NCBI GenBank assembly: GCA_035278895.1 | Contig: DATEIO010000954.1 | Coordinates: 104 to 64,103, forward strand | Reading direction: 5' to 3' | Source of the DNA: Thermoanaerobaculia bacterium | GTDB lineage: Bacteria; Acidobacteriota; Thermoanaerobaculia; Multivoradales; UBA5704 | Length of the DNA stretch: 64,000 nt | Position numbers and translations under genes: made by a program | In this document: piece by piece, positions 12,876-59,821 of the stretch | Layout: each line of letters begins with the position of its first letter | Position numbering within the stretch: position 1 is the stretch's first letter | Notes under the pieces: model-generated | The model's database searches: none | Told to the model about the DNA's origin: nothing | Seen by the model: the letters and a program-made list of their open reading frames with translations, nothing else

Positions 12876-12886
12876 GGAGGATGTCC

Positions 12887-13939
12887 ATGAGCCAACTGAC
12901 GAGCGATTCCAGCTTCAGCCGATTCGCCGCGCGCCCGCGCAAGGCCGTGCGCCTGTCCCAGGAGGAACTGATCAAGACCCGCTTCCTGCCGGAAGCGGAC
13001 GGTCAGGAGCTGCCGCTGGTGATCGAGCCCAACGTGGAGAATCTCAATCTCACCACCTGGGCGGCCAACAACCAGGGCTTCCTGGAAGAGAAGCTCCACA
13101 CCTACGGCGCTCTCCTGTTCCGCGGCTTCGACGTCGACGGCCCCGAACAGTTCCGCGAGGTGGCGCGGGCGATCTGCCCGGACCTGCTCGACTACACCGA
13201 GCGCGCGGCGCCGCGCAACGAGGTGAAGGAGAACGTCTACACCTCGACCGAGTTCCCGCCCGACCAGCACATCCCGATGCACCACGAGATGTCCTACTCG
13301 CACAACTGGCCGACCCGGCTCCTGTTCTTCTGCGATCAACCCTCGCAGGAAGGGGGCTGCACGCCGATCACCGACGATCGAAAAGTGATCGATCTGCTGG
13401 ATCCGGAGGTCAAACAGCGCTTCCTGGAGCGGGGAGTGATGTACGTCCGCAATTACGGAGAAGGGGTCGACATGCCCTGGCAGGTGGTCTTCCAGACCGC
13501 GGACAGGGCCGGGGCCGAGGCCTACTGCCGGGACGCCCACATGGACATCGAGTGGCGCGACGGCGATCGCGTCCGCACCCGCGCCCGGCGCCAGGTGCTC
13601 GCGACCCATCCGAAGACGGGCGACACGGTCTGGTTCAACCATGCCCACCTGTTCCACATGTCCAACCTGGAGCCGGCAGTCCGCGACGCGCTGCTCGCCG
13701 AGTTTGAGCCCGACGAGCTGCCGCGCAACGCCTTCTACGGCGACGGCTCGGCGATCGAGGCGCCGGACCTGGAGCACATCCGCCGCACCTACAGCGACAA
13801 CGCCGTCCGCTTCCTTTGGCAGAAGGGGGACGTCCTTCTGGTCGACAACTTCCTGGTGTCGCACGGCCGCGATCCGTTCAAGGGACCCCGCCGGATCCTG
13901 GTCGCCATGGCGGACCTCTACACCAATCCGGATCTCTGA
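12887..13939 (+). CDS. TauD/SyrP/KtzO-like Fe(II)/2-oxoglutarate-dependent amino-acid hydroxylase
   Basis: AAGGAGG lies at 12874-12880. The track start ATG 12881 abuts it; the in-frame ATG 12887 has a 6-nt spacer and is preferred. The translation shows the TauD-family layout, with an HxE iron ligand pair (PMHHEMSY) and a distal His-Gly-Arg (FLVSHGRDPFKG). The gene starts 5-11 nt after the upstream NRPS stop, inside the NRPS operon. Confidence 0.85.
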   Translation: MSQLTSDSSFSRFAARPRKAVRLSQEELIKTRFLPEADGQELPLVIEPNVENLNLTTWAANNQGFLEEKLHTYGALLFRGFDVDGPEQFREVARAICPDLLDYTERAAPRNEVKENVYTSTEFPPDQHIPMHHEMSYSHNWPTRLLFFCDQPSQEGGCTPITDDRKVIDLLDPEVKQRFLERGVMYVRNYGEGVDMPWQVVFQTADRAGAEAYCRDAHMDIEWRDGDRVRTRARRQVLATHPKTGDTVWFNHAHLFHMSNLEPAVRDALLAEFEPDELPRNAFYGDGSAIEAPDLEHIRRTYSDNAVRFLWQKGDVLLVDNFLVSHGRDPFKGPRRILVAMADLYTNPDL

Positions 13940-13988: not shown

Positions 13989-15280
13989 ATGCGGCAGCAA
14001 GTCATTGAAGGTTTCCGTCTCTCTCCCCAGCAGCGGCAGCTCTGGCGGCACCGCGGCACGGCAGGAGCCCAGGTGGTGCAGTGCGCCGCCACTCTTGAGG
14101 GAGCGGATCCGGACCGTTGGGAACAGGCGCTCCGCGAGGTGGCCTGGCGGCACGAGGCCCTGCGCACCCGCTTCGAATGCCTGCCGGGCATGGAAGTGCC
14201 GATCCAGGTGATCGGCGAGGAGGTCGCGCTCCCGGTACGGCGGATCTCCGCCGGCTCCATGGCTGCCGCGGGAGTGGAGGAGGCGGTCCGGAGCTGGATG
14301 GAGCAGGAGAGGGCTCCTTTCGACCTCCGGTCCGCTCCGCCGGTCCGCTTCGCTCTGGCCTCTCTCGGCGCGGGCCGGGACCTCCTGATCCTCTCTGCTC
14401 ATGCGCTGTGCGCCGATCCCTGGAGCCTGGAGAATCTTCTCTGCGACCTCGTCCAGGCCTGCGCCGCCCCGGGCGACGGCGAGGCCTTCGACGCGGAGGC
14501 TCTGGGATACGTCCAGTTCTCCGAATGGCAGAACGAGCTGCTCGAAGACCGTGAGAACGAAGACGAGGAGGCGTCCGCCTTCTGGGCCCGGCAGACCCGG
14601 GACGACGGCGCGCCGCTCTCGCTGCCGATCGAACGGGCTCCGCACCGCCGGACCACGGCGGAGAGAGCGGCGGCCCCGGCCGTGCGCCGACGCCTGGAGG
14701 CCGCGGCCCTGGAGCGGGCGGCGGAGGCCTGCGGATCCTCGGTCACGACCCTGGTTCTAACCTGCTGGGGGCTCCTCCTGGCCCGCCTCGCGGACGTCGG
14801 GGAGATCTCGATGCAGCTCTACACCCCGGGTCGCAAGTTCCCTGAGCTCCAGGGCGCGATCGGAGCCTTCGGCCGCTATCTTCCGCTGCGCCTGCGGGGG
14901 CCGGCGGGCCGGTCGCTCAAGGCGGAGGCCGCGCGCGTCACGGAAAGGCTGCTGGAGGTCGAGAGGTGGGAGGAGCTTTTCGCCGGGCGCGCGGAATCCG
15001 GCGTGGAGAGCGGCGATCCGGCAGATTTCGGTTTCGATGCCGAGGACCGGCAGACCCTGTTCGAGGAGGGGAGCCTGCGCCTCACAGTCCTCGAGACGGA
15101 GTGGGCGAGCCAGCCTTTCCGGCTCCGCCTGTCGGTGAGCCGCTGCGCCGGTGAGCTCGAGCTGACCTTGCGGTTCGATCCGGCGCACTTCGACCGTGGG
15201 GCCGTGCACCGGCTCGCGGACAGCCTGGAGTCCCTGCTGCGGCAGGCCGCGCGCTCGCCCGAGACCGCCACGGCCGACTT
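13989..15280 (+). other. Full-length condensation-like domain lacking the catalytic His (C*)
   Basis: About 430 aa. It has a C1-like motif (LSPQQRQLW) and its own C-A linker (LDVLGEAERQQMDAWN ~15285). The C3 motif reads H-A-L-C-A-D-P, so the second (catalytic) His is Ala. Confidence 0.7.
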
Positions 15281-18200
15281 GGACGTCCTGGGCGAGGCCG
15301 AGCGGCAGCAGATGGACGCGTGGAATGCGACCGCGATCGATTTCCCGGACGAGGCGAGCCTTTCCTGGCGGTTTGCGGCCCAGGCCGAGCGTGCGCCTGA
15401 AGCGGTGGCCGTGGTGGCACCGGAAGGGCAGCTCACCTTCCGCGCTCTCAGCAAACGCGTCGACCGTCTCGCGGATCGCCTGCGCGGCCTCGGGGTCGGT
15501 CCCGAGGTGCGCGTGGCCCTCTGCCTCGACCGTTCCCTGGATCTGATCACCGGTATTCTGGGCGTGCTGGCGGCGGGCGGAGCCTACGTGCCGTTCGATC
15601 CCTGGCAGCCGGCCGAGCGCCTGGCGGCCCTGCTCGAAGACTCAGGCGCGCCGGTGGTCCTCTGCCAGAGCCGCTCGCGGGGGCGGGTGCCCTGCGGAGC
15701 CTGGCAGGTGGTCTGCCTCGATGGGGAAAGCGCACCCCTGGCGCAGGAGCCGGAGAGGTGTGCGAGCCCGGCAGCCGGACCGGAGAGCCTCGCCTACGCC
15801 ATCTACACCTCGGGCTCCACCGGCCGCCCCAAGGCGGCGTTGATCGAAAACCGGTCCGTGGCGAACCTCCTGTTGGCTCTGGAGCGCGAGATCTACTCCC
15901 GGCTTGACGGCCGCCGGCCCCTGCGGGTGACTCTCAATGCGCCGGTCTCGTTCGATGCCTCCGTCAAGCAGTGGATCCAACTGCTGCAGGGCCGGACCCT
16001 GCTGGTGGTTCCCGAGGAGGTGCGGGCGGACGGCGAAGCGTTGCTCTTGTGGCTCAACCAGAACCACGTGGACGTCCTCGACTGCACGCCGTCGCAGCTC
16101 CGCCTGCTCCTCGCCGCCGGCCTCGGCAGCGAGCCCGACCGCTTCGCGATCTACCCGCGCGCCGTGCTGGTCGGTGGCGAGGCCATCGATCCCGGCCTGT
16201 GGGCACAGCTCGCCCGCGACAAGGGGCGGCTCTTCTTCAACGTCTACGGTCCCACGGAATGCACGGTCGACACGACCGTGTGCCGGGTGGAGCCGGGGGG
16301 CACCCCTTCGATCGGCGGGGCGCTCGCCAATGTCCGGACCTACGTGGTCGACGCCGGGTGGCGCCGGACGCCGATCGGGGTTCCGGGCGAGCTCTGCATC
16401 GCCGGCGCCGGCCTGGCGCGCGGGTATGCCGGGCGCCCCGACCTGACGGCGGAGAAGTTCGTGCCCGATCCGTTCGCCCCTGAGCCGGGCGCCCGTCTCT
16501 ACCGGACCGGCGACCGCGCGCGCTTCTGCGGAGACGGCCGGCTGGAATACCTCGGGCGCGTCGACCACCAGGTCAAGATCCGTGGCTACCGGGTGGAGCT
16601 GGGGGAGATCGAAGGGGTGCTCTCGCGCCACCCGGGCGTGGCACAGACGGTGGCGGCGCTGCGCGAAGACCAGCCCGGACGCCCGCGCCTGGTGGCCTAC
16701 GTGACGCCGCGGCGGCGGCACGCGGAGAAAGTGGGGGAGGGGCAGCACGAGCTGCCGAACGGCCTCCGCGTCACCCACCAGAACCGCAACGAGACCGAGT
16801 ACCTGTACCGGGAGATCTTTGAGAGCCGGTGCTACGCCCGGCACGGAATCTTCCTGCCCGAGGACGCCTGCGTTTTCGACGTCGGTGCCAACATCGGCAT
16901 GTTCACCCTCTTCGTGCAGGGAGAGTGTACGCGGCCGCGGGTCTACGCCTTCGAGCCCCTGTCTGCGATCCACGACTGCCTGCGGGCGAACAGCCAGCGG
17001 TATGGGCTGGACGTGAAGCTCTTCCGGTTCGGCCTGTCGGATCGGGAACGGACGGAGCGGTTCACCTACTACCCCAGCTACTCGATGATGTCCGGGCAGA
17101 GTGCCTACGCTCAGCCGTCCGCCGAGATCGAGGTCATCCGGCGCTTCCTCGAAAACCAGACCGCCAGCGGCATCGCTGGCGCGGACGCCCTGCTGGCCGA
17201 GGCGGGCGACCTGCTTGCCAATCGCTTCCGGATGGAGGAGGCCGAGGTCACCTTGCGCCGTCTCTCCAACGTGATGCGGGAGCAGGGGATCGAGCACGTC
17301 GATCTGTTGAAGATCGACGTGCAGCGGGCCGAGCTGGACGTGCTCCTCGGGATCGACGACGAGGATTGGCCGCGCATCGACCAGGTCGTCCTCGAAGTCC
17401 ACGACGGGGCCGGCGAGGCGACCGAAGGACGGGTCGCTCAGATCCGCGCCCTGCTGGAGCCGCGCGGCTTCCGCGTGGTGGCCGAGCAGGACGAGCTGCT
17501 GACCGGCACCGATCGCTACAACGTCTACGCCATCCGCCAGGGCCTGGAGACCCGGGCCGCCCGCGCCTGCGAGGCTTCAGGGCTCGCCCGGTTGCGCGAG
17601 GCCGGCGCGGCGGAGCTCTCGGCCGACGGCCTTCGCGAGCACGCCCGCCGCTGGCTGCCGGACTTCATGGTCCCCTCCGATCTGGTGATCCTGGACGAGC
17701 TCCCCATCACCCCCAACGGCAAGGTCGACCGCCGCGCGCTGCCGGCGCCGGAAGAGGTGGCCGCAGCCGGGCAGCGCCAGGTCCGGGCGCCACGCACTCC
17801 GATCGAAGAGGTCCTGGTGGGGCTCTTCGCCGCAGTGCTCGGCCTCGACCGGGTCGGCGTCGACGAGAGCTTCTTCGACCTGGGGGGGCACTCCCTGATG
17901 GCCACCCAGCTCATGGCGCGGGTGCGCGAGACCTACCGGGTGGAGATGCCGCTGCGCCTCCTCTTCGAGCGCCCCACGCCGGAGCGGCTGGCCCAGAGCG
18001 TGGCGACCGCTCTGCGCGCCGGCGTCGACGTCCGGGAGTCCATCCCGCCGGTGCCGCGCGAGGGCGATCTGCCGCTCTCGTTCGCGCAGCAGCGGCTCTG
18101 GTTCGTCCAGCAGTTGGAGCCGGACGCCACGATGTACAACAGCATCAAGGCGCTCCGCGCCCGGGGGGAGCTCGACGTCGCGGCCCTGGAGGCCACCTTC

Positions 18201-19475
18201 ACGGAGCTGGTGCGGCGCCACGAGATCCTGCGGACCACCTTCCTCTCGGTCTCCGGCGAGCCCGTGCAGCGCATCCATCCGCCGGCCCCGGTCGACCTCC
18301 CGGTGATCGACCTGGAGGGATTGCCGGAGCCCGTCCGTCTCGACGAGGCGCGCCGCCGGTGCAAGAGCGAGACGACGACCCCCTTCGATCTGGCGCACGA
18401 GGTGATCCGGTTCCGGCTCCTCCGGCTCTCCTCCAAGGATCACGTCATCCTCCTCGGTTTCCACCACATCCTCGGAGACGCCTGGTCGCTGAACGTGATC
18501 GAACGCGAAGTCCGGACCCTGTACGAAGGGTTCCGGGAGGGGCGTCCGGCCGGGTTGCCGGACCTGCCGGTCCAGTACGCCGATTTCGCGTGGTGGCAGC
18601 GCCAGTGGCTGCAGGGGGAGGTCCTCGACGCGCATCTCGCGTACTGGAAGAAGCAGCTCGCCGGGGTGCCGCTGGTCCTCGATCCCGCCGCTCACGAGCC
18701 ACGGCCCCGGGGGGTTGCCCGCCGGCAGGCGGAGAGCCTCGTGGCCCTGGGGCCGGAGATCACGGAGAAGATCAAGGCTCTCGGCCTCCAGCAGGGGACC
18801 ACGCTGTACATGACCCTCCTGTCCGCCTTCTCCGTGCTGATGTCCCGCTTCGCGCAGCAGGACGATCTGGTCCTGGGCACCTCGTTCGCGGGCCGCGAGC
18901 GCGTCGAGACCGAGGGGCTCATCGGGTGCTTCGTCAACGTCCTGCCGATGCGAGCGAATCTCACCGACCGGCCGACGTTCCTGGAGCTTCTGGGGCGCAT
19001 GCGTGAGGTGACGCTGGGCGCCTACGCGCATCAGAACCTCCCCTTCGAGCGCCTGGTCGAAGAGCTGACGGACGAGAGGCGGCTCGGCCGCAATCCGGTC
19101 GTCCAGGTCTTCTTCGGGATCCAGAACGCGCTGGACGTGAAGCTCGGGCTCCCCGGCCTCGAGATGGAGCCCTTCGAGGAGGGATACGAAGAGGTGCGCG
19201 TCGACCTGAGCGTCTGGATGTGGGAATCGGGAGACGCCCTGAAAGGGGTGTGGAGCTACGACACCTCTCTGTTTCTCCCGCAGACCATCGAACGGATGCA
19301 GAAGGGCTTCGAGAATCTCCTCGCAAGCCTCCTCGCCGACCCGGAAGCCCGGGTTCACGACCTGGAGCTCAGGACCGAAGCCGAGAAGGAAGAGCTGCAA
19401 CAACAGGCGAAGGCTCTCAAGCAGTCCAACCTCGAGAGATTCCGCAAAGCGAAGGCCCGGCCGGCTGCTGTCTGA
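13989..19475 (+). CDS. Non-ribosomal peptide synthetase: C*(His-less)-A(Glu-like, interrupted by FkbM-type methyltransferase)-T-C
   Basis: ATG 13989 follows AGAGGGGA. N-terminal C-like domain has MRQQVIEGFRLSPQQRQLW but SAHALCADP in place of HHxxxDG (~14394-14420). A core: YTSGSTGRPK ~15805; by-eye code DAKDLGVVDK. A8: KIRGYRVELGEIE ~16575. Insert 16710-17545. A9/A10: LPDFMVP ~17655, PNGKVDRR ~17715. T: LGGHSLMA ~17880. Terminal C: LPLSFAQQRLWF ~18070, HHILGDAWS ~18465. Stop TGA 19473-19475. Confidence 0.93.
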   Translation: MRQQVIEGFRLSPQQRQLWRHRGTAGAQVVQCAATLEGADPDRWEQALREVAWRHEALRTRFECLPGMEVPIQVIGEEVALPVRRISAGSMAAAGVEEAVRSWMEQERAPFDLRSAPPVRFALASLGAGRDLLILSAHALCADPWSLENLLCDLVQACAAPGDGEAFDAEALGYVQFSEWQNELLEDRENEDEEASAFWARQTRDDGAPLSLPIERAPHRRTTAERAAAPAVRRRLEAAALERAAEACGSSVTTLVLTCWGLLLARLADVGEISMQLYTPGRKFPELQGAIGAFGRYLPLRLRGPAGRSLKAEAARVTERLLEVERWEELFAGRAESGVESGDPADFGFDAEDRQTLFEEGSLRLTVLETEWASQPFRLRLSVSRCAGELELTLRFDPAHFDRGAVHRLADSLESLLRQAARSPETATADLDVLGEAERQQMDAWNATAIDFPDEASLSWRFAAQAERAPEAVAVVAPEGQLTFRALSKRVDRLADRLRGLGVGPEVRVALCLDRSLDLITGILGVLAAGGAYVPFDPWQPAERLAALLEDSGAPVVLCQSRSRGRVPCGAWQVVCLDGESAPLAQEPERCASPAAGPESLAYAIYTSGSTGRPKAALIENRSVANLLLALEREIYSRLDGRRPLRVTLNAPVSFDASVKQWIQLLQGRTLLVVPEEVRADGEALLLWLNQNHVDVLDCTPSQLRLLLAAGLGSEPDRFAIYPRAVLVGGEAIDPGLWAQLARDKGRLFFNVYGPTECTVDTTVCRVEPGGTPSIGGALANVRTYVVDAGWRRTPIGVPGELCIAGAGLARGYAGRPDLTAEKFVPDPFAPEPGARLYRTGDRARFCGDGRLEYLGRVDHQVKIRGYRVELGEIEGVLSRHPGVAQTVAALREDQPGRPRLVAYVTPRRRHAEKVGEGQHELPNGLRVTHQNRNETEYLYREIFESRCYARHGIFLPEDACVFDVGANIGMFTLFVQGECTRPRVYAFEPLSAIHDCLRANSQRYGLDVKLFRFGLSDRERTERFTYYPSYSMMSGQSAYAQPSAEIEVIRRFLENQTASGIAGADALLAEAGDLLANRFRMEEAEVTLRRLSNVMREQGIEHVDLLKIDVQRAELDVLLGIDDEDWPRIDQVVLEVHDGAGEATEGRVAQIRALLEPRGFRVVAEQDELLTGTDRYNVYAIRQGLETRAARACEASGLARLREAGAAELSADGLREHARRWLPDFMVPSDLVILDELPITPNGKVDRRALPAPEEVAAAGQRQVRAPRTPIEEVLVGLFAAVLGLDRVGVDESFFDLGGHSLMATQLMARVRETYRVEMPLRLLFERPTPERLAQSVATALRAGVDVRESIPPVPREGDLPLSFAQQRLWFVQQLEPDATMYNSIKALRARGELDVAALEATFTELVRRHEILRTTFLSVSGEPVQRIHPPAPVDLPVIDLEGLPEPVRLDEARRRCKSETTTPFDLAHEVIRFRLLRLSSKDHVILLGFHHILGDAWSLNVIEREVRTLYEGFREGRPAGLPDLPVQYADFAWWQRQWLQGEVLDAHLAYWKKQLAGVPLVLDPAAHEPRPRGVARRQAESLVALGPEITEKIKALGLQQGTTLYMTLLSAFSVLMSRFAQQDDLVLGTSFAGRERVETEGLIGCFVNVLPMRANLTDRPTFLELLGRMREVTLGAYAHQNLPFERLVEELTDERRLGRNPVVQVFFGIQNALDVKLGLPGLEMEPFEEGYEEVRVDLSVWMWESGDALKGVWSYDTSLFLPQTIERMQKGFENLLASLLADPEARVHDLELRTEAEKEELQQQAKALKQSNLERFRKAKARPAAV
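16710..17545 (+). other. FkbM-family SAM-dependent methyltransferase inserted between A8 and A9 of the adenylation domain
   Basis: About 280 aa are inserted after RLVAYV (~16700) and before LPDFMVP (~17655). The insert contains a VFDVGANIGMF SAM-binding motif (16871-16903) and the stretch YAFEP...RFGLSDRE...LLKIDVQRAELDVL, which is typical of FkbM-type methyltransferases. Confidence 0.8.
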
Positions 19476-19504
19476 CAGGCCTGGAGAGATTTCGGAGGAC
19501 CGCC

Positions 19505-20820
19505 ATGGAACAACTGCAGTCGTCGCTCGAGGGATTCTGGCTTTCTCCCCAGCAGAAGCGCGTGTGGCTCCTGAGCCGGAGCGGCCCCGCTCTGGTCGAA
19601 CAGGGTGTCGTTCTCGTGGAAGGCTCTCTCGATCCGCGCCGCCTCGAAGCGGCGCTGGCGCGGGTTCTCGAGCGGCACGAAATCCTTCGGACCACCTTCA
19701 AAGCGGTGTCCGGCATGGCGTTCCCGCTCCAGGTCGTCGAGGACGGCGCGGACCTCGCGCTGCGCACCATGGACTGGAGCGCCGGAGGCCCCGGAATTGC
19801 GGAGGACGAGGCATTCGACGCCATCCTGCGCGAAGAGCGGGAGACCGGCTTCGACTTCGAGGAAGGGCCGGTCGCACGCTTCTGCCGCATCACGCTCGGC
19901 GGGCAGCGGCACGCGCTGGTGATCACGCTGCCGTCCGTCTGCGGAGATGCGGCGAGCCTCGAAAACCTGGTCGGCGAGATCGGCCGGGAGTATCTCGCGG
20001 AGAGCGGAGTGCCGAGCCTGCAGGAGCAGGAGGAGCCGGTCCAGTACATCCAGTTCTCGGAGTGGCAGAACGAGATCCTGAGCGACACCTCCGAGGAGGG
20101 GGAGCCGGGACGGCGCCACTGGCGGTCGCGCCAGGAGATCTCCGGGCCAGCGCCAAGCCTGCCTCTCGAAGGAGAGGCAGAGGTGGCGCAAGGGGTCTCC
20201 CGGACCTTGCGCCTCTCGCCGGGCCCGGACCTCGGGGCAGGCCTGGCCGCCTGGGCCGCGGCGCGGGGGGTGACGGAGAGCGCGGTCCTCCTCGCAGCCT
20301 GGTGGGGCACGCTCTGCCGGCTGACCGATCGCGAGGAGCTCCGGATTTCCGTGCAGTGCCACGGCCGGGCCTATGAAGAGATGCTCGGGGCCATCGGGCT
20401 CTACGAGCGCTGGCCCGCAATCGGCCGCGGTCTACGCAGCAGCTTCCTGTTTTCGGAGGTGGTCGACTCTTTCTCCCGGGAGCTCGCCGAAGCGCTGGAA
20501 TGGCAGGAGCTCTACGGGCCTGAGGCGCTCGACGGGAGCACCGCCGGAGGCGGGGGATTCGGCTTCGAGTACACCACCCGCCGCGGCGAGCCTTTCCAGG
20601 CGGGGCCGGTGCGCTTCTCCCTGGCGCGGCTCGACGGCTGCACCGAACGCTTCAAGCTCCGCCTCTCCGCAGCGCGCGGTCCGCGAGGGCTCGGGCTCGA
20701 CCTGTGCTTCGATCCGGGCCTGTACGAGGACACGGCGGCGCTGCGCCTCGCGGAGAGCTTCTTCGCCCTGCTCGCCGCGGGTCTGGCAGCGCCCGACACT
20801 CCCGTCCAGGAGCTCGAGGT
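19505..20820 (+). other. Full-length condensation-like domain lacking both His of HHxxxDG (C*)
   Basis: The C1-like motif GFWLSPQQKRVW is present. The C3 position reads LPSVCGDAA (19931-19951), with no His at all. It has its own C-A linker, LEVLGGTELGLLALWN (~20815). Confidence 0.7.
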
Positions 20821-23800
20821 GCTGGGCGGCACGGAGCTTGGGCTCCTCGCCCTGTGGAACCGCACCTCCTGCCCGCGGCCGGCCGAAGAGCGCCTGCACG
20901 AGCTGTTCGCCGAGCAGGCGAGGCGCACCCCCAAGGCCCTGGCGGTGCTCGCCGGCGACGCGCGGCTGACCTTCGCCGAGCTCGACCAGCGGGCCAACCG
21001 GATCGCCTGGCTCCTGGCCGGTCTCGGGATCGGACCCGACGACCGGGTGGCGCTCTGCCTCGAGCGCTCGGCGGACGCCATCGCCGCCCTCCTGGGGATT
21101 CTCAAGGCCGGCGGCGCCTATGTGCCGGTCGACCCCCTGCAGCCGGGCGACCGGCTCGCCGCCATGCTCTCGGACGCCGGGGCCCGGGTGGTCCTGAGTC
21201 AGAGCCGTCTCTCTTCGCGCGTGCCGCCGGGCTCCTGGCGCACGGTGCTTCTGGATGAGGAGAGCGAGCTCCTGGAGCAGCAGCCCGGGACCGCTCCGGA
21301 GGTGAGCGTCACCGCGGAGCACCTAGCCTACGTGATCTATACCTCGGGCTCCACCGGCCGGCCCAAGGGGACGCTCATACGGCACCGGTCCGTGGCCAAC
21401 CTGATCGTCGCTCTCGACCGGGCCATTTACGGCCGGCTGGGAGAGGGGCCGTGGCGGGTGAGCGTCAATGCGCCTCTGTATTTCGACGCCTCGGTCAAGC
21501 AGTGGGTCCGGCTGCTCCGCGGCGACACGCTGGCGATCGTGGCCGAGGAGCTGCGTACCGACGCTCCGGCGCTCCTCGACTGGCTGCGCCGGGAGCAGGT
21601 GGACGTCCTCGACTGCACACCGTCGCTCTTGCGGCTCCTGCTCGGTGCCGGGCTTCCGGCCGCGGATGGCAGGCCTCAGGCCCTGCTGATCGGCGGGGAG
21701 GCGATCGACGCGGCGCTCTGGGAGGCGCTGGCGGCCGACCCTCATCGCCGGTCCTTCAACGTCTACGGCCCCACCGAATGCACCGTCGACGCTGCCATCG
21801 ACGAGATCGCGGCCGGCCGGACGCCGGCCCTCGGCCGGGCGATCGCCAACGTGGAGCTGTACGTCCTCGGCTCGGCGCTGCACCGGCAGCCGCTGGGGAG
21901 CCCGGGTGAGCTGTGCGTGGGCGGGGAAGGGCTGGCGCGCGGCTATCTGGGCCGCCCCGATCTGACGGCGGAGAAGTTCGTGCCCGATCCCTACGGCGGC
22001 CGGCCGGGGGGCCGTCTCTATCGCACGGGCGACCGCGCGCGTTTCCTCCCGGATGGCAGGATCGAGTTCCTCGGCCGCCTGGACCACCAGATCAAGCTGC
22101 GCGGCTTCCGGATCGAGCTGGGCGAGATCGAGGCTGCCCTGGCCAGCCACCCGGAGGTGAGTGAAGCGGTGGCGCTCTTGCGCGAGGACCAGCCCGGCCA
22201 GCCGCGCCTCGTGGCCTATGCCGTGGGGCGGAACCGGGACTGCTCACCGGCGCCGGAAGAGCTGCGCGAGCACCTGCGCGGGCTGCTGCCCGACTACATG
22301 GTCCCGGCCGCCTGCGTGGCCCTCCGGGAGATGCCCCTGACCCGCAACGGCAAGGTCGACCGCCGCGCGCTGCCCGCGCCGGAGGAGGTGGCCACCGAGG
22401 CGCGGGAGCGCCTGACGCCGCGGACCCCCATCGAAGAGATCCTGGTCGGGATCTTTGCCGACGTTCTCGGCATCCAGCCTCCGGGCGCCGACGAGAGCTT
22501 CTTCGAGCTCGGCGGGCACTCGCTTCTGGCCACTCAGCTCATCGCCCGGGTGCGCGAGTCGTTCCGCATCGACCTGCCTCTGCGCGTCCTTTTCGAGGAC
22601 CCCACGGCGGCGGCGCTGGGACCGCGGATCGAAGCCGCTCTGGCAGCCGGAGGCGCTCTGGAGGCGCCGCCACTCCAGGCGATGCCGCGCGAGGGGGACC
22701 TCCCCCTGTCTTTTGCCCAGCAGCGGCTCTGGTTCCTCTGGCAGCTCGAGCCGGACAGCCCGGCGTACAACAACCCCAAGGCCCTGCGGATCCGCGGTCC
22801 GCTGGAGGTCGCCGCCGTGGCGCAGACGCTCCGGGAGATCGTGCGTCGCCACGAGGTCCTGCGCACGACGTTCCCGGCCCTGGAGGGAGAGCCGGTGCAG
22901 CGGATCGAGCCGGCGGCGTTTCTCTCCCTGCCGCGGATCGACCTGTCGTCCCTGCCCGAGGAGGAGCGGGAAGCGGTGGCGCACCACCTTTTCCGCGCGG
23001 ATGCGCGGCGCCCATTCGACCTGGCGTGCGAGATCCCGGTGCGGGCGCAGTTGCTGTGCCTCGACGCCGACGACCATGTCCTGCTTCTCACCTTCCACCA
23101 CATCGCCTGCGACGCCTGGTCGCTGGCGGTTCTGGAGCGCGAGGTGACCCGGCTCTACGAGTCCTTCGCCGCCGGCCGGCCCTCCCCCTTGTCCGAGCTG
23201 CCGGTCCAGTATGTGGACTTCGCGCGCTGGCAGCGCGATTGGCTGCGGGGGGAAGCCCTGGAGCGCCAGCTCGCCCATTGGCGTGGCCGGCTCGAAGGCG
23301 CTCTGCCGGTCCTCGCGCTGCCGCTCGACCGGCCGCGTCCCGCGGTGTCGAGCTCGCGCGGCCGGCGGCAGACGCTCGCGATTCCGGCCCCGCTGTCGCG
23401 CGCCCTGGCCGAGCTGAGCCAGCGGCGGGCGTCGACCCTGTTCATGACTTTGCTGGCCGGCTTCCAGGCCCTGCTGGCCCGCCTCTCGGGGCAGGAGGAC
23501 GTGAGCGTCGGAACCCCGATTGCAGGCCGCCGCCATGTCGAGACCGAAGGGCTGATCGGGTTTTTCGTCAACACCCTCGTGCTGCGCGGACGGATGGAGG
23601 GGAACCCGGCGTTCGAGGATCTCCTGGGACAGGCTCGGGAGACCGCGCTCCAGGCCTACGCTCACCAGGACCTCCCGTTCGAACGCCTGGTCGACGAGCT
23701 CGCTCCGCAGCGCGACATGGCGCACTCGCCGCTCTTCCAGGCCCTGCTCGTTCTGCAGAACGTGGGACGGGACGGTGTGCAGGTCGCCGGCCTGGATCTC

Positions 23801-26800
23801 TCCTCCTTCGGTGCCGGGCCTCTCGTCTCGAAGTTCGATCTGACGTTGAGCCTGACGGAGGGCGCGGAGGGGCTCCAGGGCGGGCTGGAGTACCGCAGCG
23901 AGCTGTTCGATCCGGCGACGATCGCACGGCTCGGCCAGCACCTGATCACCCTGCTGGAGGGAGCCGTCGCCGAGCCGAAGACCCGGTTCGCGGACCTTCC
24001 GCTCCTGACCGCTGCCGAGCGCCACCATCTGCTGGCCGAGTGGAACGACGCTGCGGCCGACATCCCTGAGGTGGCCTTGCACAGCTTGATCGAGGCCCAG
24101 GTCGAGCGTGCTCCGGACGCCGTGGCCGTCACCTTCGCCGGAGAATCGCTGACCTATCGCGAGCTGGATCAGCAAGCCACGGCGCTGGCCTGCCGGTTGC
24201 GCGCCCAGGGGGTCGGCCCGGAGGATCGGGTGGGCCTCTGTGCCGAGCGGTCGCTCGAGCTGGTGGCCGGGCTTCTGGGCATCCTCAAGGCCGGCGGCGC
24301 CTACGTGCCGCTCGACCCGGGGTATCCGGATGCGCGGCTCTCCCAAGTTGCCGAGGACGCCCGGTTCCCGGTGCTGCTGACCCAGGAACCGATGCGGGAA
24401 CGCCTCGCGGCGCTGGCCGGCCCGGAGATCTCTTTGATGGATCTGGCCGCCGGCCCCGCTGCAGACGCCGCCGCGACACCGGCGTGGACGGACAGCGGCG
24501 CCGGCCCCGGCCATGCGGCCTACGTCATCTTCACCTCCGGGTCGACAGGACGCCCGAAGGGAGCGATCAACACTCACCGTGGCATCGTCAACCGCCTGCT
24601 CTGGATGCAGAGCACTTACGGTCTGACGGCTGGGGATTGCGTCCTGCAGAAGACCCCGTTCAGCTTCGACGTCTCGGTGTGGGAATTCTTCTGGCCGCTG
24701 CTGACCGGCGCCCGCCTGGTGCTGGCCCAGCCGGGCGGCCATCAGGATCCGGCCTACCTGGCACGAACCATTGCTGACGAGGGAGTCACCTGTCTCCACT
24801 TCGTGCCTTCGATGCTGCGGGCCTTCCTGGACGAGCCGGATCTGTCGGGCTGCTCGGAGCTGCGGATGGTCATGGCCAGCGGCGAGGCTCTGCCCCTCGA
24901 TCTGGCCAGGCAGTTCCACGAACGTCTGGGCCGACCCTTCGGGACCCGGCTGCACAATCTCTACGGCCCCACGGAAGCGGCGGTGGACGTGACGTTCCAC
25001 GGCTGCCGGTCCGGAGAGGAGAGGGTGCCGATCGGCCGGCCGGTCGCCAACACGCACATCCATCTGCGCGATGCGGCGGGCGGGCTCGCGCCGGTGGGCG
25101 CAGCGGGCGAGCTGCACATTGGTGGCGTGCAGGTCGGGCGCGGTTATCTCGGCCGGCCGGACTTGACCGCAGACCGGTTCGTGCCCGATCCGTTCGGCGC
25201 TCCCGGCAGCCGGCTGTACCGGACCGGTGATCTGGCGCGGCATCTTCCGGACGGCGAGTTGGAGTACCTGGGACGCATCGATCACCAGGTCAAGGTGCGG
25301 GGCTTCCGCATCGAGCTGGCCGAGATCGAGGCGACCCTGGCACAGCACCCGGCCGTTCACGAATCCGTGGTCGTGGCCCGGGAAGGGGCGAACGGTACGG
25401 TCCTCGCCGCCTACGTGGTGCCGGAGGCGGGGAGGAGCGCCGATCCGGCAGCTCTGCGGGATCACCTCAGAGATCGCTTGCCGGAGTTCATGGTGCCTCC
25501 GGCCTGGGTGGTGTTGGATGAATTCCCGCTCCTGCCCAACGGCAAGCTGGACCGCCGGGCCTTGCCGGATCCCGGCCGGATTGAGGCCCCGGGGAGCGGT
25601 GGCCCGGCTCCGCGCACCCCCCTCGAAGAGATCGTGGCCGGGATTTTCGCCGAGGTGCTCGGCATCGGGCTGCCCGGCCCGGAGGCGAGCTTCTTCGATC
25701 TTGGCGGCCATTCGCTGCTCGCTACCCGCGTGATGGCCCGGGTGCGCAGCACGCTTGGAGTGGACCTGCCGCTGCGCACCCTGTTCGAGGCGCCCGCCGC
25801 CGCGACCCTGGCCCGGAGGATCGAAGCCGCGCAGGCGGCCGGCGCCGTCCTCGACATTCCGCCGATCCGGCCCGCGCCGCGCAAGGAGCCTCTCCCGCTG
25901 TCCTTCTCCCAGCAGAGGCTCTGGTTCCTCTGGCAGCTCGAGCCGGCCAGCCCGGCGTACAACGTCCCCCTGGCTCTGCGCATCCACGGGCTGTTGGACG
26001 TGGACGTCCTGGAGCGCGCCCTCTCCGAGGTCGTGCAGCGCCACGAGGCCCTGCGCACGGCCTTCCCGTCGGTGAACGGCGACCCGGTGCAGGTCGTCGA
26101 TCCGGCGGCGCGGCTCGAGCTGCCGCTGGCGGATCTGGCCGACCTGCCGGCCGGGAAGCGCGAAGAGCTGGCGCGGCGCGCCGCCCAGGCCGAGGCACGG
26201 GGTCCCTTCGACCTCTCCCGGGAGCTGCCGGTGCGCGCCAAGCTGCTCCGCCTCGACGCGGAAGATCACCTCCTGCTCCTCACCTTCCATCACATCGTTT
26301 CGGACGCCTGGTCGCTGTCCGTTCTGGAGCGGGAGATGACCGCCCTGTACGAGGCCTTCGCTGCGGGGCGCCCCTCGCCTCTCCAGGACCTGCCGGTCCA
26401 GTACGGCGACTTCGCGGTCTGGCAGCGGCAGTGGCTGCAAGGGGAGACGCTGGAGCGGCAGCTCGCCTTCTGGAGCGATCAGCTCGCCGGCGCCCCGCCG
26501 GTCCTCGACCTGCCGCTGGACCGGCCTCGGCCTCCGGTGGCGGGCCCGCAAGGCGACAGTGTCCCCTTCACCCTGCCTCCCGCCCTGTGCCGCGCCCTTT
26601 CGGGGCTCTGCCGGCAGCGGTCGTCGACTCTGTTCATGACCCTGCTGGCCGGCTTCCAGACTCTGCTGGCCCGCGTTTCCGGCCAGGGAGATGTCAGCGT
26701 CGGGACCCCGATCGCCGGACGGCGCCATGTGGAAACCGAGGGGTTGATCGGATTCTTCGTCAACACGCTCGTGATGCGCGGCCGGTTGGCGAACGATCCC

Positions 26801-29800
26801 ACCTTCGAGGAGCTTCTCGGCCAAGTGCGGGAGACGGCGCTCCAGGCCTATGCCCACCAGGACCTCCCCTTCGAGCGGCTGGTCGACGAGCTGGCCCCCA
26901 CGCGCACCCTGGCGCACACGCCCCTGTTCCAGGTGATGCTCGTGCTGCAGAACGTCGAGCGCAGCGGCGCGTTAAGAGGCGGTCTGCAGCTCTCCCCCTT
27001 CGGCGCCGGGACCGGGGTGACCAAATTCGACCTGAGACTGAGCCTGGCAGAGCGCGGGGACGCGCTCTCCGGCGGGCTGGAGTACCGCACCGACCTGTTC
27101 GACCGGGAGACCCTCGTGCGCCTGGCCGGGCATCTGGAGCGTCTGCTGGAGAGCGCGGTCGCCGAGCCGCGCGCCCGCCTCTCCGAGCTCGCTCTCCTCT
27201 CCTCGGCCGAACGCCACCAGCTCCTGGCCGAGTGGAACGACGCGGCCGTCGAAGTGCCGCAGGAGGCGACCCTGCACGGCCTGTTCGCAGCCCAGGTGGA
27301 GCGCGCGCCCGAGGCCACGGCCGTTCTCGGCGCCGGTGAGCGGTGGACCTATCGCGAGCTCGCCGAACGGGCGTACCGCATTGCCTGGCGGTTGCGCGGT
27401 CTCGGCGTCGGGGCCGAGGACCGGGTGGCCCTCTGCCTGGAGCGCTCGCCGGAGGCCATTGCGGCCCTTCTTGGCGTGCTTGCCGCCGGTGCCGCCTACG
27501 TGCCTCTGGATCCCCGGCAGCCGGCCGGGCGGTTGGCCGACCTGCTCGATGACTGCGGCGCCTCCATCGTGCTCACCACGAGCGCCCTGGCGTCCCGCTT
27601 GCCCTCGGAGGATCGGCGCATCGTTTGCCTCGACGCGGAGCGGGAGGCTCTGGATCGCCTGCCGGCGACCGCCCCGGCTGTGGCCCTTCCGGCCGAAGGG
27701 CTCGCCTACGTCATCTACACCTCGGGCTCGACCGGACGGCCCAAGGGGACGCTGATCCAGCACCGCTCGGTGATCAACCTGGTGAGCGCTCTCGACCGGG
27801 CGGTCTACGACCGCCTGGGCCGCGGGCCCTGGCGGGTGAGCGTCAACGCTCCACTCCTGTTCGACGCCTCGGTCAAGCAGTGGACGCGCCTGCTTCGCGG
27901 CGACGCCCTGGTCCTGGTGCCGGAGGAGCTGCGCGCCGACGGCCCGGCCTTCCTCGCCTGGCTGCGCTCCGCGGAGGTCGACGTGCTCGATTGCACCCCG
28001 TCGCAGCTCCGGTTGCTCTTGGAGGCGGGCCTGGCGGAGACGGACGGAGCGCCGCGGGCCGCCCTGGTCGGGGGCGAGGCCATCGACGCTGCCCTCCGGG
28101 AGACGCTCGCTGCGGATTCGCACCGCCGCTACTTCGACGTCTACGGCCCCACCGAGTGCACGGTGGATGCCGCGATCGGCGAGATCGCGGCCGGCCAGGG
28201 GCCGGGCCTCGGCCGGACGATCGCCAACGTGGAGCTCTTCGTGCTCGATGCAGCGCTCCGGCAACTGCCGCTCGGCGTGCCGGGAGAGCTGTGCATCGGC
28301 GGCGCCGGTCTGGCCCGTGGCTATCTGGGCCGCCCCGACCTGACGGCGGAGAGATTCGTGCCCGATCCGTCCGCCCGGCGCGCCGGGGCCCGGCTGTACC
28401 GCACGGGCGACCGGGCGCGGTTCCTGCCGGACGGCCGTCTCGCGCTCCTCGGCCGCCTCGACCATCAGATCAAGCTGCGCGGCTTCCGCATCGAGCCCGG
28501 CGAGATCGAGGCTGCGCTGGCCAGCCATCCGGCCGTGCACGACGCGGTCGTCCTGCTGCACGAGGACCGGCCCGGGCATCCGCGCCTGGTGGCCTGGGCG
28601 GTGGCGGAGGCCGCTCCGGAAGAGCTGCGCGAGCACCTGCGGCAGCGCCTGCCCGAGCCCATGGTGCCGTCCGCCTGCGTGGTCCTCGACCGGATGCCGC
28701 TGACCCGCAATGGCAAGGTGGACCGCCGCGCGCTGCCCGCTCCTGCCGCGTTGGCGGCAGGCGGTGAAGAGCGGCCGCAGGCGTGGACACCGGGCGAAGA
28801 GATCGTGGCCGGCATCTTCGCCGACGTCCTCGGGATCGAGCGGCCCGGCGCGGAGGCGAGCTTCTTCGATCTCGGCGGCCATTCGCTGCTCGCCACCCGG
28901 GTCATCTCCCGGGTGCGGACCGCGTTCGGCATTGACTTGCCGTTGCGCGCCCTGTTCGAAGAGCCGGCGGTTGCAGGCTTGGCGCGGCGGGTGGAGGAAG
29001 CGAGGGCCGCCAACATGGCTCTGGAGGCTCCGCCGCTCCGGCCGGTGCCGCGCGAGGGGCATCTCCCTCTGTCCTTCGCCCAGCAGCGGCTCTGGTTCCT
29101 CTGGCAGCTCGAGCCCGACAGCCCGGCGTATAACATCCCGCAGGCGCTGCGCATCCGCGGCCCTCTGGACACGGAGGCCCTGGAGCACACCCTCTCCGAG
29201 ATCGTGCGGCGCCACGAGGTCCTGCGCACCACGTTCCCGGCCCTGGAGGGGGAGCCGGTTCAGCACATCGCACCGGCAGCGCAGCTCCAACTGCCGCTCA
29301 CCGACCTGTCGGACCTGCCGGCGGCGGAGCGCGAGGCCATGGCGCGCCGGGCGGCCGGCAGCGAGGCGCGGAACCCGTTCGATCTGGCGCGCGAGATCCC
29401 GGTGCGGGCCCGGTTGCTCCGGCTCGACGCCGCGGACCACGTCCTCCTGCTCACCTTCCACCACATCGCCTCCGATGCCTGGTCGCGGACCGTGCTGCAG
29501 CGGGAGGTGTCGGCTCTGTACGGAGCCTTCGCGGCCGGGCTCCCCTCGCCGCTTCCGGAGCTGCCGATCCAGTATGCGGACTTCGCGCAATGGCAGCGGC
29601 AGTGGCTCCAGGGGGAGGTCCTGGAACGCGAGCTCGCCGACTGGCGCGACCAGCTCGACGGCGCTCCGCCGCTGCTCGACCTGCCCCTGGACCGGCCGCG
29701 GCCGGCGGTCGCGAGCGCGCGCGGCGGGAAGGTGCCCTTCTCCCTGCCGGCCCCCCTGTCGCTCTCCTTGACGGAGCTGAGCCGGCAGCTCTCCTCGACC

Positions 29801-50568: not shown

Positions 50569-50647
50569 GTGGGAAGCGGTTTACCCCGGCACGGGAAAGG
50601 AGTTACCCGAAGGCCGGTATTTTCAAGGGGTTGCGGCGCCTCCGGCC

Positions 50648-50663
50648 TGGCACTTGCCTTGCT
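50648..50663 (+). promoter_or_regulatory. Sigma54 (-24/-12) promoter element TGGCAC-N5-TTGCT
   Basis: The sequence TGGCACttgccTTGCT has exact GG-N10-GC spacing. It sits 80 nt after the exporter stop and 114 nt before the ADOP permease ATG, on the same strand. Confidence 0.55.
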
Positions 50664-50776
50664 CAATCGTCTTCGCGAGGTTGAGCATGAGCTGGCAAAC
50701 GCCCGCGAACGAAGCAGAACCTCGCGAGTTGGAATGAGTGGCTGATGACAGCCACGGAGAACCAGGAGACATCGCC

Positions 50777-53233: not shown

Positions 53234-53279
53234 CTGGACGCGGGAGGCCAGAGCCACAGCCAGGGTATGATCCTGGTTG

Positions 53280-54544
53280 ATGCTAAAGCGGCTCGAGCGG
53301 CTCGTCGGAAGGTGGTGGAGGCGCAGGCGAGTCGACCGCCGCGCCTTCCAGGAGCTGGGCCGCTCGCTCGCGCTGATCGTCGACCGCGAGGCCTTGAAGT
53401 CGAGCGTGGCCGCGCGCATCCGCGAGCTGTTCGATCCGGACCGGCTCATCGTCCTGGAGCCCGACCTCGGAGAAGCCGTGTTCCAGCCCGGCTTCTCCTT
53501 CGGCCTCGATCCGGCCGAGCTCGAAGGGGTCGAGCTCCCCGCCCGCGGCAAGCTCGCGCGCTGGCTCACGGTCAACGAGGTCTCCTTCGTCCGCGACCGT
53601 CAGTCGGGGGTTTTCGACTATCTCGATCCGGCAGAGAAGGACCTCTTCGACCGCTTGCGGGTCACGGTCGCGGTCCCCATGGTCTCGCTCAACCGCATGA
53701 CCGGGATCCTTCTCCTCGGATGGGACCAGTCAGGGCGCCAGTTGCTCGGGAGCGACCTGGAGCTGCTGCAGCTCCTGGCCTCCCAGGCGAGCCTCGCCTT
53801 CGAGAACGCGGCCCTCTACCGCGCGCAGCAGGAGCGCCTCGACCGCCTCCACCGCGCCGAACGCCTGGCTGCGGTCGGTCAGCTCGCGGCCGGCGTAGCC
53901 CACGAGATCCGCAACCCGCTGACCGCGATCCGTTCGACCATGCAGTACCTCCTCCAGGGCCTCGACCCTGCCGAGCCGCGCCATCAGCTCGTCGCCGAGA
54001 TCCTGAGCGAGGTCGACCGCATCAACGGCACGGTCGGCGGGCTGCTCAGCCTCAGCCGGGCCGGCGAGGTCCATCTGACGGAGACCGATCTGACCGATCT
54101 GGTGTCCACGTCGATCCATCTGGTCCAGGCCCGCGCGGGAGAGCAGGGGGTCGTTCTCGAAGCCCGCCTCGGCAGCGAGCCGCTGCGCGTCCTGGCCGAC
54201 GCCGGTCAGCTCAAGCAGGTCTTTCTCAATCTGCTCTTGAACGCTCTGCAGTCCATGCCCGGTGGTGGCCGGATCACCGTCACCGCGTCCCCCTGGCGTT
54301 CGCCGCTCGGGGGCGGGCAGCGCTGGGCCCAGGTCCGGATCGCCGATACGGGGCCCGGAATTCCCTCCGACCAGCTCCGCCATATCTTCGACCCCTTCTA
54401 TACGACCAAACGGGAAGGCACTGGTCTGGGGCTCGCCATCTGCTACGGTATTGTCGAGAGGCACCAGGGGGAGATCCAGCTGGAGAGCGAGCTGGGAAAA
54501 GGGACCACGGCCTCTGTCCGACTGCCGCTCGCGGAGAAAAAAGC

Positions 54545-54560
<16 letters not shown>
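53280..54560 (+). CDS. Soluble sensor histidine kinase (GAF-like N-terminal domain, HisKA, HATPase_c)
   Basis: H-box AHEIRNPLTAIRST. N/G boxes LNLLLNALQSMP, IADTGPGIP, GTGLGLAICYGIV. No hydrophobic TM segments. The track start is TTG 53277; ATG 53280 is the next codon. Confidence 0.85.
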
Positions 54561-55951
<1,391 letters not shown>

Positions 55952-55963
55952 CCTCCCGGTCTT

Positions 55964-56686: not shown

Positions 56687-56690
56687 CGGG

Positions 56691-59749: not shown

Positions 59750-59805
59750 GAGTACCTTTGGAACCGGTCAAGCTCGGCTTCTGAAGTCTATCAGCAAGTG
59801 CAGAA

Positions 59806-59821
59806 TGCAGCCTGCGTGCCA
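59806..59821 (-). promoter_or_regulatory. Sigma54 (-24/-12) promoter element, minus strand: TGGCACG-N4-CTGCA
   Basis: The reverse complement of 59806-59821 is TGGCACgcaggCTGCA, with exact GG-N10-GC spacing. It lies ~57 nt upstream of the ABC-2 operon start (59749) in the correct orientation. Confidence 0.5.

Follow-up and report, generated by a model that had tools for sequence, protein, structure and literature searches.

An orphan interface domain at a split glutamate module in an Acidobacteriota nonribosomal peptide synthetase operon

Interface domains have only recently been added to the logic of nonribosomal peptide synthetases (NRPSs). Reitz, Hardy, Suk, Bouvet and Butler (PNAS 2019) reportedly described the interface domain alongside the Asp/His beta-hydroxylases of siderophore pathways, whether NRPS-fused or free-standing, and are said to have proposed that the domain positions the hydroxylase as well as the amino acid on the T domain. 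To our knowledge, the literature still treats physical binding of the hydroxylase by the interface domain as a proposal, and interface domains have so far been tied to hydroxylation of Asp and His in siderophores. In kutzneride biosynthesis, KtzO and KtzP reportedly beta-hydroxylate Glu-S-T of KtzH (Strieker et al. 2009), and the two enzymes are mentioned in PMC7100376; we know of no report of an interface domain in this pathway. In glycopeptide NRPSs, the X domain (PDB 4tx2, 4tx3 and 6m7l) recruits Oxy cytochrome P450s. For cyanochelin B, the CcsL residue was established as beta-OH-Asp by NMR and MS (PMC12628792). Interface-domain profiles are included in antiSMASH 8 (PMC12230676).

Here we analysed a stretch of 64,000 nucleotides (the window) that holds an NRPS operon with two condensation-like (C*) domains, C*1 at junction 1 and C*2 at junction 2. 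Judging from its sequence, C*2 is a member of the known interface (I) domain family. Its occurrence in front of a Glu module without a hydroxylase gene of its own is an uncommon but recurrent, conserved variant. A preliminary description of this DNA had suggested that C* may recruit a hydroxylase; the idea is not new and corresponds to the published interface-domain model.

Layout of the two junctions

Junction 2 lies between NRPS-2 (orf3, 13989..19475) and the giant NRPS (orf4, 19505..48913; 9,802 aa, with a TE at its end), and the features around it are collected in Table 1. The terminal C domain of orf3 carries an intact C3 motif, HHILGDAWS (18462-18488), and the protein ends in ...LELRTEAEKEELQQQAKALKQSNLERFRKAKARPAAV, followed by TGA at 19473-19475. 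Its tail opens like a C-A linker (LELRTEAEKEELQQQ) and closes on a basic end (AKALKQSNLERFRKAKARPAAV), with a net charge of +6 across the last 25 aa; it occupies the position of the C-to-TauD linker of fused relatives, which have ...KFKSIKPKAVSL there. With only 29 nt between orf3 and orf4, there is no TauD at junction 2, and a scan of this gap found no promoter- or terminator-like site. The N-terminus of orf4 reads MEQLQSSLEGFWLSPQQKRVW. The internal module A3, behind a C domain with HHIVSDAWS, has a code identical to that of the A domain after C*2. The anatomy given in the preliminary description (an intact C domain with a basic tail, 29 nt, a His-less C3 position and a Glu code) was all present in place, as was the normal C domain that it had noted as the only one of the internal Glu module. 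We also considered a frameshift artefact fusing orf3 and orf4; this was ruled out by the Shine-Dalgarno sequence and ATG and by the relatives, 108/108 of which begin a protein here.

Table 1. Features at junctions 1 and 2 of the window
Feature	Position	Strand	Basis or detail
TauD/TfdA-family dioxygenase gene, between orf1 and orf3	12881..13939	+	Pfam PF02668, E 2e-47
C*1, interface-type domain, junction 1	13989..15323	+	dead C3 motif SAHALCADPWS
Terminal intact C domain of NRPS-2 (orf3)	18060..19397	+	Pfam PF00668 aa 1358-1803, motif alignment
Basic C-terminal tail of NRPS-2	19398..19472	+	sequence
orf3-orf4 gap, 29 nt	19476..19504	+	Shine-Dalgarno GGAGG 19494-19498, 6 nt upstream of ATG 19505
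C*2, N-terminal domain of orf4	19505..20827	+	Pfam, family alignment, clade, AF2 model
A domain after C*2, code DAKDLGVVDK (Glu)	20906..22354	+	Pfam, code; normal C-A type linker ELEVLGGTELGLLALWNRT to C*2
T (PCP) domain, first orf4 module	22439..22618	+	Pfam PP-binding, aa 979-1038

As had been claimed, the arrangement of C and C* occurs twice in the operon, each C* standing before a Glu-code A domain, and the two C* modules have an identical Glu code. At junction 1, the A domain (code DAKDLGVVD) contains an inserted FkbM-type methyltransferase (16878-17477). The TauD gene of junction 1 lies 5.6 kb upstream of C*2 in the same operon and is the sole tblastn TauD match within the 64-kb window; orf1 extends past the left window edge, and this count of hydroxylase genes is that of the window only. 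Phylogenetically, the encoded enzyme belongs to the same clade as TauDs adjoining Glu-code modules, where it groups with those of loci L053 (Glu code), L001 and L002.

The C*2 domain and its family

C*2 spans the whole Condensation profile (Pfam PF00668; aa 13-441 against positions 7-448 of 456, E 4.8e-43), it has PDB sequence matches to Txo1/Txo2 C domains (E 4e-20, aa 14-441), and its AF2 model has a C-domain fold (pLDDT 82, TM 0.75-0.84 to C domains). NCBIfam assigned it a generic NRPS model only, and PDB and fold searches returned no solved interface-domain structure. At the C3 position, C*2 reads LPSVCGDAAS (19928-19957) and lacks both His of HHxxxDG, whereas every canonical C domain in the window has HHxxxD[AG]WS. 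C*1 and C*2 share 32% identity with one another but only 21-28% with the window's 15 canonical C/E domains, and both contain family-specific motifs common to ~100 relatives elsewhere. Family-conserved columns are retained at 80% in C*2 and 77% in C*1, compared with 57-59% in canonical C domains. The I domains are also unusually acidic (-27 in C*2), and the tails are basic (+6, +7). The pattern is not a chance one, and C*2 belongs to a distinct conserved clade and is not a decayed C domain.

To define the family, we surveyed 108 C* domains in 83 loci (82 fetched loci and the window), drawn from the best 80 of ~590 genome hits; a profile search of 1.84 billion proteins ranked giant NRPSs by their summed ordinary-C-domain scores and was useless for this definition. 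Within these best 80 of ~590 hits, all 108 C* domains stand at the start of a protein, where LSPQQ follows after a median of 10 aa (12 aa in C*2); the HH motif and catalytic His are absent from 108/108, the consensus being LPALCAD instead; and the upstream protein supplies an intact C domain for every C* with upstream sequence at hand. The link to a hydroxylase proposed in the preliminary description is real: a TauD gene or domain lies immediately upstream of 81/108 C* domains (best 80 of ~590 hits), and in 41 of the 81 it forms one protein with the terminal C domain upstream, so that a C-TauD ends the upstream NRPS. The C* domains form a monophyletic clade, separated from canonical C domains by a long stem. 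Clades within it track hydroxylase type (fused versus free-standing), and TauD clades track A-domain code. Both C*1 and C*2 fall in the acidobacterial clade, in which free-standing TauDs and Glu/Gln codes accompany the C* domains; Glu or Gln codes after C* are also found in L017, L053, L061, L075, L052 and L020. Each of 16 relatives with two C* domains per locus has an own TauD for each C* (best 80 of ~590 hits), which makes a shared hydroxylase the exception.

The similar N-termini of the two C* proteins (EGFRLSPQQ and EGFWLSPQQ) had been taken to argue for a docking or recruitment device, but they follow a family-wide start, M-x(5-16)-LSPQQ, and are no docking signal specific to these junctions. 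Likewise, the resemblance seen between the tails is mainly compositional: scored against the family tail/linker motif, the tail of orf3 was a marginal match (p about 0.07-0.08) and that of orf1 was not significant. The argument from similar tails and N-termini is weak. Among the window tails and the TauD N-terminus, only the latter (SFSRFAARPRKAVRL) passed a composition-preserving shuffle test against the C-TauD linker motif found in relatives with the fusion (p 1e-4 to 1.5e-3). We searched a six-frame translation of the window with a 33-column C-TauD linker HMM and obtained no significant match; we therefore do not claim homology of the window tails to this linker.

Orphan members and the reading of junction 2

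In 13/108 C* domains, junction 2 included, the terminal C domain lies directly upstream and no hydroxylase intervenes (best 80 of ~590 hits). Orphans elsewhere have dN/dS of 0.22-0.25 compared with 0.18-0.35 for hydroxylase-linked members, and purifying selection acts on orphan C* domains as strongly as on partnered ones.

C*2 is a non-catalytic paralogue of a condensation domain, placed at an NRPS N-terminus directly before an A domain, in a module divided over two proteins. We consider it probable that it acts as the interface domain of this split Glu module and that the junction-1 TauD serves both C* domains. The terminal C domain of NRPS-2 would make the peptide bond, and C*2-A-T at the start of orf4 would select and carry Glu, with the T domain presenting it to the C domain of orf3 and perhaps also to the hydroxylase. 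Because the normal C-A linker is kept, C*2 probably holds the usual place of a C domain against the A domain, and it would serve as the junction piece between the two proteins, with the basic orf3 tail possibly acting in docking. In the family, C* is the partner of a beta-hydroxylase of the TauD type, which modifies the amino acid on the T domain ahead of condensation, and C* would recruit this enzyme physically. The stand-alone TauD of junction 1, the own module of which loads Glu, is the candidate trans-acting beta-hydroxylase. The predicted outcome is beta-hydroxy-Glu at both C* positions and an unmodified Glu from the internal module A3 with its normal C domain. For the junction-2 Glu, we regard hydroxylation in trans as an evenly balanced question. 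The preliminary description had allowed up to three hydroxylated residues; for residue X this is unsupported, as the last module of orf1 is A-less and without a C*, and the junction-2 Glu is uncertain since one hydroxylase per C* is usual in relatives.

Alternatively, C*2 may have lost its former hydroxylase and act only as a structural or docking N-terminal cap, leaving the junction-2 Glu unhydroxylated. We hold this to be possible but doubtful. It is consistent with the usual pattern of one TauD per C* and with the orphan members, which remain under purifying selection even though several of their loci (L043, L048, L069 and L081) lack a TauD in the 10 kb to each side. The orphan C* of L038 goes with an Asp code and the only nearby TauD falls in the His clade, which speaks against service by a neighbouring TauD in at least some orphans. 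In Pleurocapsales, the tails end within the C-TauD linker motif (LAKFKTIKSSR* and LAKFKAIKTK*), as might be left after deletion of a fused TauD. C*2 itself has CGD and not CAD in its dead motif, a signature that goes with absence of TauD: CGD is strongly enriched, with 9/19 C* domains without an adjacent TauD versus 1/81 with one (best 80 of ~590 hits), and the substitution may mark a changed function. On the other hand, a cap alone fits less well with a Glu-clade TauD a few kilobases upstream in the same operon, with two C* modules that load the same amino acid, and with family-specific columns that are as well kept in C*2 as in the TauD-adjacent C*1.

The same CGD enrichment could mean that C*2 recruits another tailoring enzyme, or serves epimerisation control or methylation, in place of a TauD. 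L015 and L046 each have a B12-binding radical SAM gene immediately ahead of a C*-A(Asp) protein of the CGD type, and a methyltransferase occupies the slot between terminal C and C* in L027; these are few and anecdotal neighbourhoods, no such gene is present at junction 2, and we judge the reading very unlikely. The sole radical SAM gene of the window (59952-61550) was rejected as a partner of C*2 by analogy with L015, being located 11 kb past the NRPS and unrelated to the L015 enzyme. A broader proposal joins two parts: that CGD orphans including C*2 are hydroxylase-independent, forming a general docking or tailoring platform for modules split between C and A-T, with a shared trans hydroxylase or other enzymes (radical SAM, methyltransferase), and that the acidobacterial-type TauD/I system has switched its target from Asp/His to Glu/Gln and has been joined by an A-embedded O-methyltransferase. 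Taken jointly, we find this unlikely. Finally, the loss of both HHxxxDG His and the tandem with an intact C domain might suggest a functionless, decaying duplicate C domain, or one that is still catalytic with an unusual active site. The clade is ancient and has its own conserved motifs, dN/dS is about 0.2, the AF2 model of C*2 is well folded, and the whole family lacks the catalytic His while the upstream protein gives an intact C wherever sequence is at hand, so that decay or catalysis would be extremely improbable. The earlier argument for a functional device and against a relic is borne out by the monophyly and motifs of the clade, by the four-fifths of family columns that C*2 retains and by the selection on orphans.

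Comparison with described systems

The window and several Acidobacteriota relatives place an interface device before Glu- and Gln-code modules. The conserved orphan form separates two normally confounded roles, that of joining or docking the parts of a split module and that of a hydroxylase platform. A single operon here holds one TauD, two interface domains and an unmarked Glu module, and it offers a natural test of whether the interface domain alone chooses the hydroxylated residue. For genome mining, an interface domain alone is no predictor of beta-OH-Asp. If the re-targeted system with its A-embedded O-methyltransferase is real, it would yield beta-hydroxy- and beta-methoxy-Glu in a non-siderophore peptide.

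C*2 is not a glycopeptide X domain, and the likeness is in the fold only. Both are dead C-fold domains regarded as platforms for trans oxygenases (TM 0.73-0.84 to the C*2 model), but the X domain is C-terminal in the last module, works with P450s and not TauD, and belongs to another sequence clade; no P450 was found among the window genes scanned with Pfam. The kutzneride pathway shares with the window a TauD-family beta-hydroxylation of carrier-bound Glu, putative in our case, and its truncated A* is matched here by the A-less last module of orf1.

The interface domains of 2019 and C*2 agree in being members of the condensation superfamily without the catalytic His, located at an NRPS N-terminus before an A domain, and in following an upstream NRPS that ends in C (often TauD-fused in the known systems). 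They differ in that junction 2 has no hydroxylase gene or domain, the code is for Glu here and for Asp or His there, one TauD gene faces two interface domains, and at junction 1 a methyltransferase is inserted in the partner A domain. In addition, unlike the siderophore systems, the window carries ABC and MacB exporters, and none of its genes is an obvious candidate for siderophore uptake. Among individual proteins, CcsL (BAU16061) of the cyanochelin B cluster, on plasmid 2 of Leptolyngbya sp. NIES-3755, offers a direct comparison. It starts with a C* (LPSLCAD) that gives a full-length tblastn match to C*2 (E 1e-43, about 30% identical). The substrate there is Asp, the hydroxylase lies at the junction and the product is a cyanobacterial siderophore, which sets this system apart from junction 2. 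As at junction 1, a free-standing TauD (CcsK) lies between the upstream NRPS and the C* protein, and, as in the window, that upstream NRPS ends in a C domain with a basic tail (...LQRLKLTKRRKQH* in the cyanochelin B cluster).

Domain organisation at the orf3/orf4 junction

At the junction between the consecutive NRPS proteins orf3 and orf4, an intact terminal condensation (C) domain faces a condensation-like domain without the catalytic His, the interface (I) or C* domain. The orf3 C domain (motif HHILGDAWS) is followed by a tail, ...LELRTEAEKEELQQQAKALKQSNLERFRKAKARPAAV, and a 29-nt intergenic gap with GGAGG six bases upstream of the orf4 ATG; no promoter- or terminator-like site was found in this gap. 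The orf4 protein begins with MEQLQSSLEGFWLSPQQ, and its N-terminal domain, C*2, gave an end-to-end match to the Condensation profile (E 4.8e-43), with LPSVCGDAAS at the active-site C3 position, where every canonical C/E domain in the window has HHxxxD. The orf4 A-domain codes read, in order, Glu, Ser, Glu, Gln, Gln, Ile, Ser, Ser and Gln. The code DAKDLGVVDK is common to A1 and the internal A3, which follows a normal C domain, and DAKDLGVVD was also read after C*1, the C* that opens orf3. Every feature of this junction in the preliminary description (C-domain end, tail, gap, C3 sequence, Glu code and A3) was found in the sequence.

The last module of orf1, the preceding NRPS, has no A-domain core ahead of its terminal C; an AMP-binding_C remnant with a substituted A10 Lys (PDGVLDR) is followed by an intact T domain. 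This module must either receive its residue in trans or be skipped, and it resembles the A*-T that KtzH contributes to kutzneride biosynthesis. As orf1 is open at the left window edge, the assembly line extends upstream and only part of the cluster lies within the window. Among the ORFs scanned downstream of the NRPS genes, there were no obvious TonB-receptor or siderophore-uptake genes.

Features of the window and of the fetched loci of relatives carrying C* (L numbers)
Locus	Feature	Coordinates	Details
Window	orf1 T-domain end at left edge	1-38	LRALFEGPTIAELAERV
Window	orf1 last module	10560-11200	
Window	AMP-binding_C remnant	10881-11099	orf1
Window	TauD-family gene	12881..13939	PF02668, E 2e-47; between orf1 and orf3; the window's only one
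Window	orf3 (NRPS-2)	13989..19475	C*1 - A (FkbM-type methyltransferase inserted) - T - C
Window	FkbM-type methyltransferase	16878-17477	PF05050; in A domain after C*1
Window	orf3 stop codon	19473-19475	
Window	orf4 (giant NRPS)	19505..48913	ATG at 19505; 9,802 aa; nine A domains; terminal TE
Window	Gly of CGD in C*2	19943-19945	
Window	Genes downstream of NRPS	48763-61550	ABC transporter, MacB/FtsX permease, sigma-54 response-regulator activator, ABC-2 permeases, radical SAM gene
L061	PF05050 insertion after C*	3061-3750; 12791-13531	
L053	PF05050 insertion after C*	6313-7059	
L052	PF05050 insertion after C*	6308-6958	
L077	PF05050 insertion after C*	7816-8559	
L002	PF05050 insertion after C*	13059-13583	
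L015 (Acidobacteriota)	B12-binding radical SAM gene	8207-9934	directly upstream of C*-A(Asp) protein
L046 (Acidobacteriota)	B12-binding radical SAM gene	8127-9863	directly upstream of C*-A(Asp) protein
L027 (Nostoc)	Free-standing C plus methyltransferase gene	7595-9863	in usual TauD slot, ahead of C*-A(His) protein
L020	Two C*	7431-8720; 10001-11308	1.3 kb between; no room for full A-T-C

The C* family and its conservation

C*1 shares 32% identity with C*2, and either of them 21-28% with the canonical C domains of the window; the N-terminal similarity previously pointed out between them is family consensus only. A protein search with C*2 picked up relatives from Acidobacteriota MAGs that are 31-38% identical to it, with three common traits (LPALCAD replacing HHxxxDG, a start of M..IEGFRLSPQQ, and the motif QYxQFSEWQNELLE) and the contig order "...A-T-C, TauD, C*-A", where TauD is a TauD/TfdA-family dioxygenase and candidate beta-hydroxylase. 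Scanning one genome per species gave 591 confirmed relatives; we kept the best 80 of these 591, which span Cyanobacteria, Acidobacteriota, Nitrospira, Chloroflexota and Verrucomicrobiota. Mapping every C-type and TauD-type segment in the kept loci yielded 108 C* domains, all 108 at a protein start (median 10 residues ahead of LSPQQ). TauD lay directly upstream in 81, fused to the terminal C of the upstream NRPS in 41 of them; 13, including C*2, were orphans (terminal C directly upstream, no TauD), and 14 lay at a locus edge or in another context. In a neighbour-joining tree, C* formed one clade, with a long stem separating the canonical C domains. Fused and free-standing TauDs fell into different clades, and the C* domains sorted likewise. 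The A codes after C* were mostly Asp (DLTK[IV]GH[IV]G), with one His-type clade (DSALIAEVW); in Acidobacteriota we found Glu (twice in the window, L017, L053, L061, L075) or Gln (L020, L052, L061).

Several results argue against junction 2 being a relic. Across columns at least 80% conserved among TauD-linked C* members, C*2 retains 80% (71% of family-specific ones) and C*1 77% (69%), versus 57-59% (14-19%) in canonical C domains. Orphan C* occur at about ten places in the tree, with dN/dS of 0.22-0.25 (Pleurocapsales L043, L048 and L081; L015/L046), compared with 0.18-0.35 for TauD-linked C* and 0.09-0.17 for adjoining A domains. The alternative of a sporadic pseudogenised domain therefore fails, and the earlier proposal of a functional rather than decayed element is upheld.

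Possible docking, methylation and hydroxylation

Fused relatives join C to TauD through a linker made of a charged stretch and then NFSKFKSIKPKAVSL, conserved in 41 loci (L003, L006, L008 and 38 more) as ...EKQKQ..KREK.NFSKFKSIKPKAVSL...; a version ends most unfused upstream NRPSs (...RQKLKSIKRKVV..., ...LAKFKTIKPQIS*), and free-standing TauDs start with this motif. By composition-preserving shuffle tests, the window TauD N-terminus (SFSRFAARPRKAVRL) gave a significant match to the linker (p 1e-4 to 1.5e-3), the orf3 tail (NLERFRKAKARPAAV) a marginal one (p 0.07-0.08) and the orf1 tail none; an unbiased HMM search for this linker across the window was negative. The similarity claimed for the two tails lies mainly in composition, both being basic (+6 for orf3, +7 for orf1). 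An unusually acidic charge marks the I domains, with a mean of -19 and -27 for C*2, against -6 to -17 for the window's canonical C/E domains; these charges are compatible with electrostatic docking.

The methyltransferase insertion behind C* recurs among several relatives from Acidobacteriota whose codes are Glu, Gln or Asp, which suggests that a TauD, I and A(MT) unit may be able to make beta-methoxy residues. L071 and L028 also contain the insertion, its position relative to a C* not being established.

We propose that one module is split over two proteins, in which the orf3 C domain would condense while C*2-A-T of orf4 would load and carry Glu. Because the normal C-A linker comes after C*2, C*2 would stand in for a C domain in the C-A platform. 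It would serve as an inter-protein junction piece and likely TauD landing site, with hydroxylation on Glu-S-T ahead of condensation.

The junction-1 TauD, between orf1 and orf3, may also hydroxylate the junction-2 Glu, with evidence both ways. The C*1 and C*2 modules load the identical amino acid, the window TauD clusters with TauDs adjoining Glu-code modules (L053, with L001 and L002), and C* clades track hydroxylase type, with C*1 and C*2 both in the clade paired with free-standing TauDs and Glu/Gln codes. However, 16 loci with two C* have a TauD for each, and in L038 an orphan C* (Asp code) lies beside a TauD of the His clade. The TauD count also covers the window only, and orf1 runs past its edge, so further TauD genes are possible. 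C*2 moreover has CGD rather than CAD, and CGD was read in 9 of the 19 C* that lack an adjacent TauD versus 1 of the 81 that have one (Fisher test, 4e-7 on sequences and about 5e-4 on a rough count of lineages), having replaced CAD in about six separate lineages. The Gly of CGD, next to the conserved Asp in the dead C3 motif, was also seen in L043, L048, L055, L066, L079, L015, L046 and L074. Separately, L038, L070 and L079 have two C* in consecutive proteins with at most one TauD within reach.

Relation to known interface domains

A full-length match to C*2 was found at the N-terminus of BAU16061, which is encoded on plasmid 2 of Leptolyngbya sp. NIES-3755 and is the CcsL protein of the cyanochelin B cluster. 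There CcsL follows the free-standing hydroxylase CcsK, and NMR and MS identified its residue as beta-OH-Asp (PMC12628792). In a cyanochelin C preprint, one NRPS is described as ending with "a C-domain and TauD" that work jointly with the following ORF. AF2 modelled C*2 as a complete C fold (pLDDT 82, pTM 0.83); the nearest solved structures were ordinary C domains and glycopeptide X domains, with no interface-domain structure among the matches. A 2019 paper reportedly described the interface domain as a non-canonical member of the condensation family, with a proposed role in positioning both the hydroxylase and the amino acid bound to the NRPS. Given this description and the match to CcsL, the arrangement of C followed by C* is the already published interface-domain architecture. 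The junction is thus known in kind, and its departures are the Glu/Gln specificity, an orphan C* that may share a hydroxylase, and the recurrent A-domain methyltransferase insertion.
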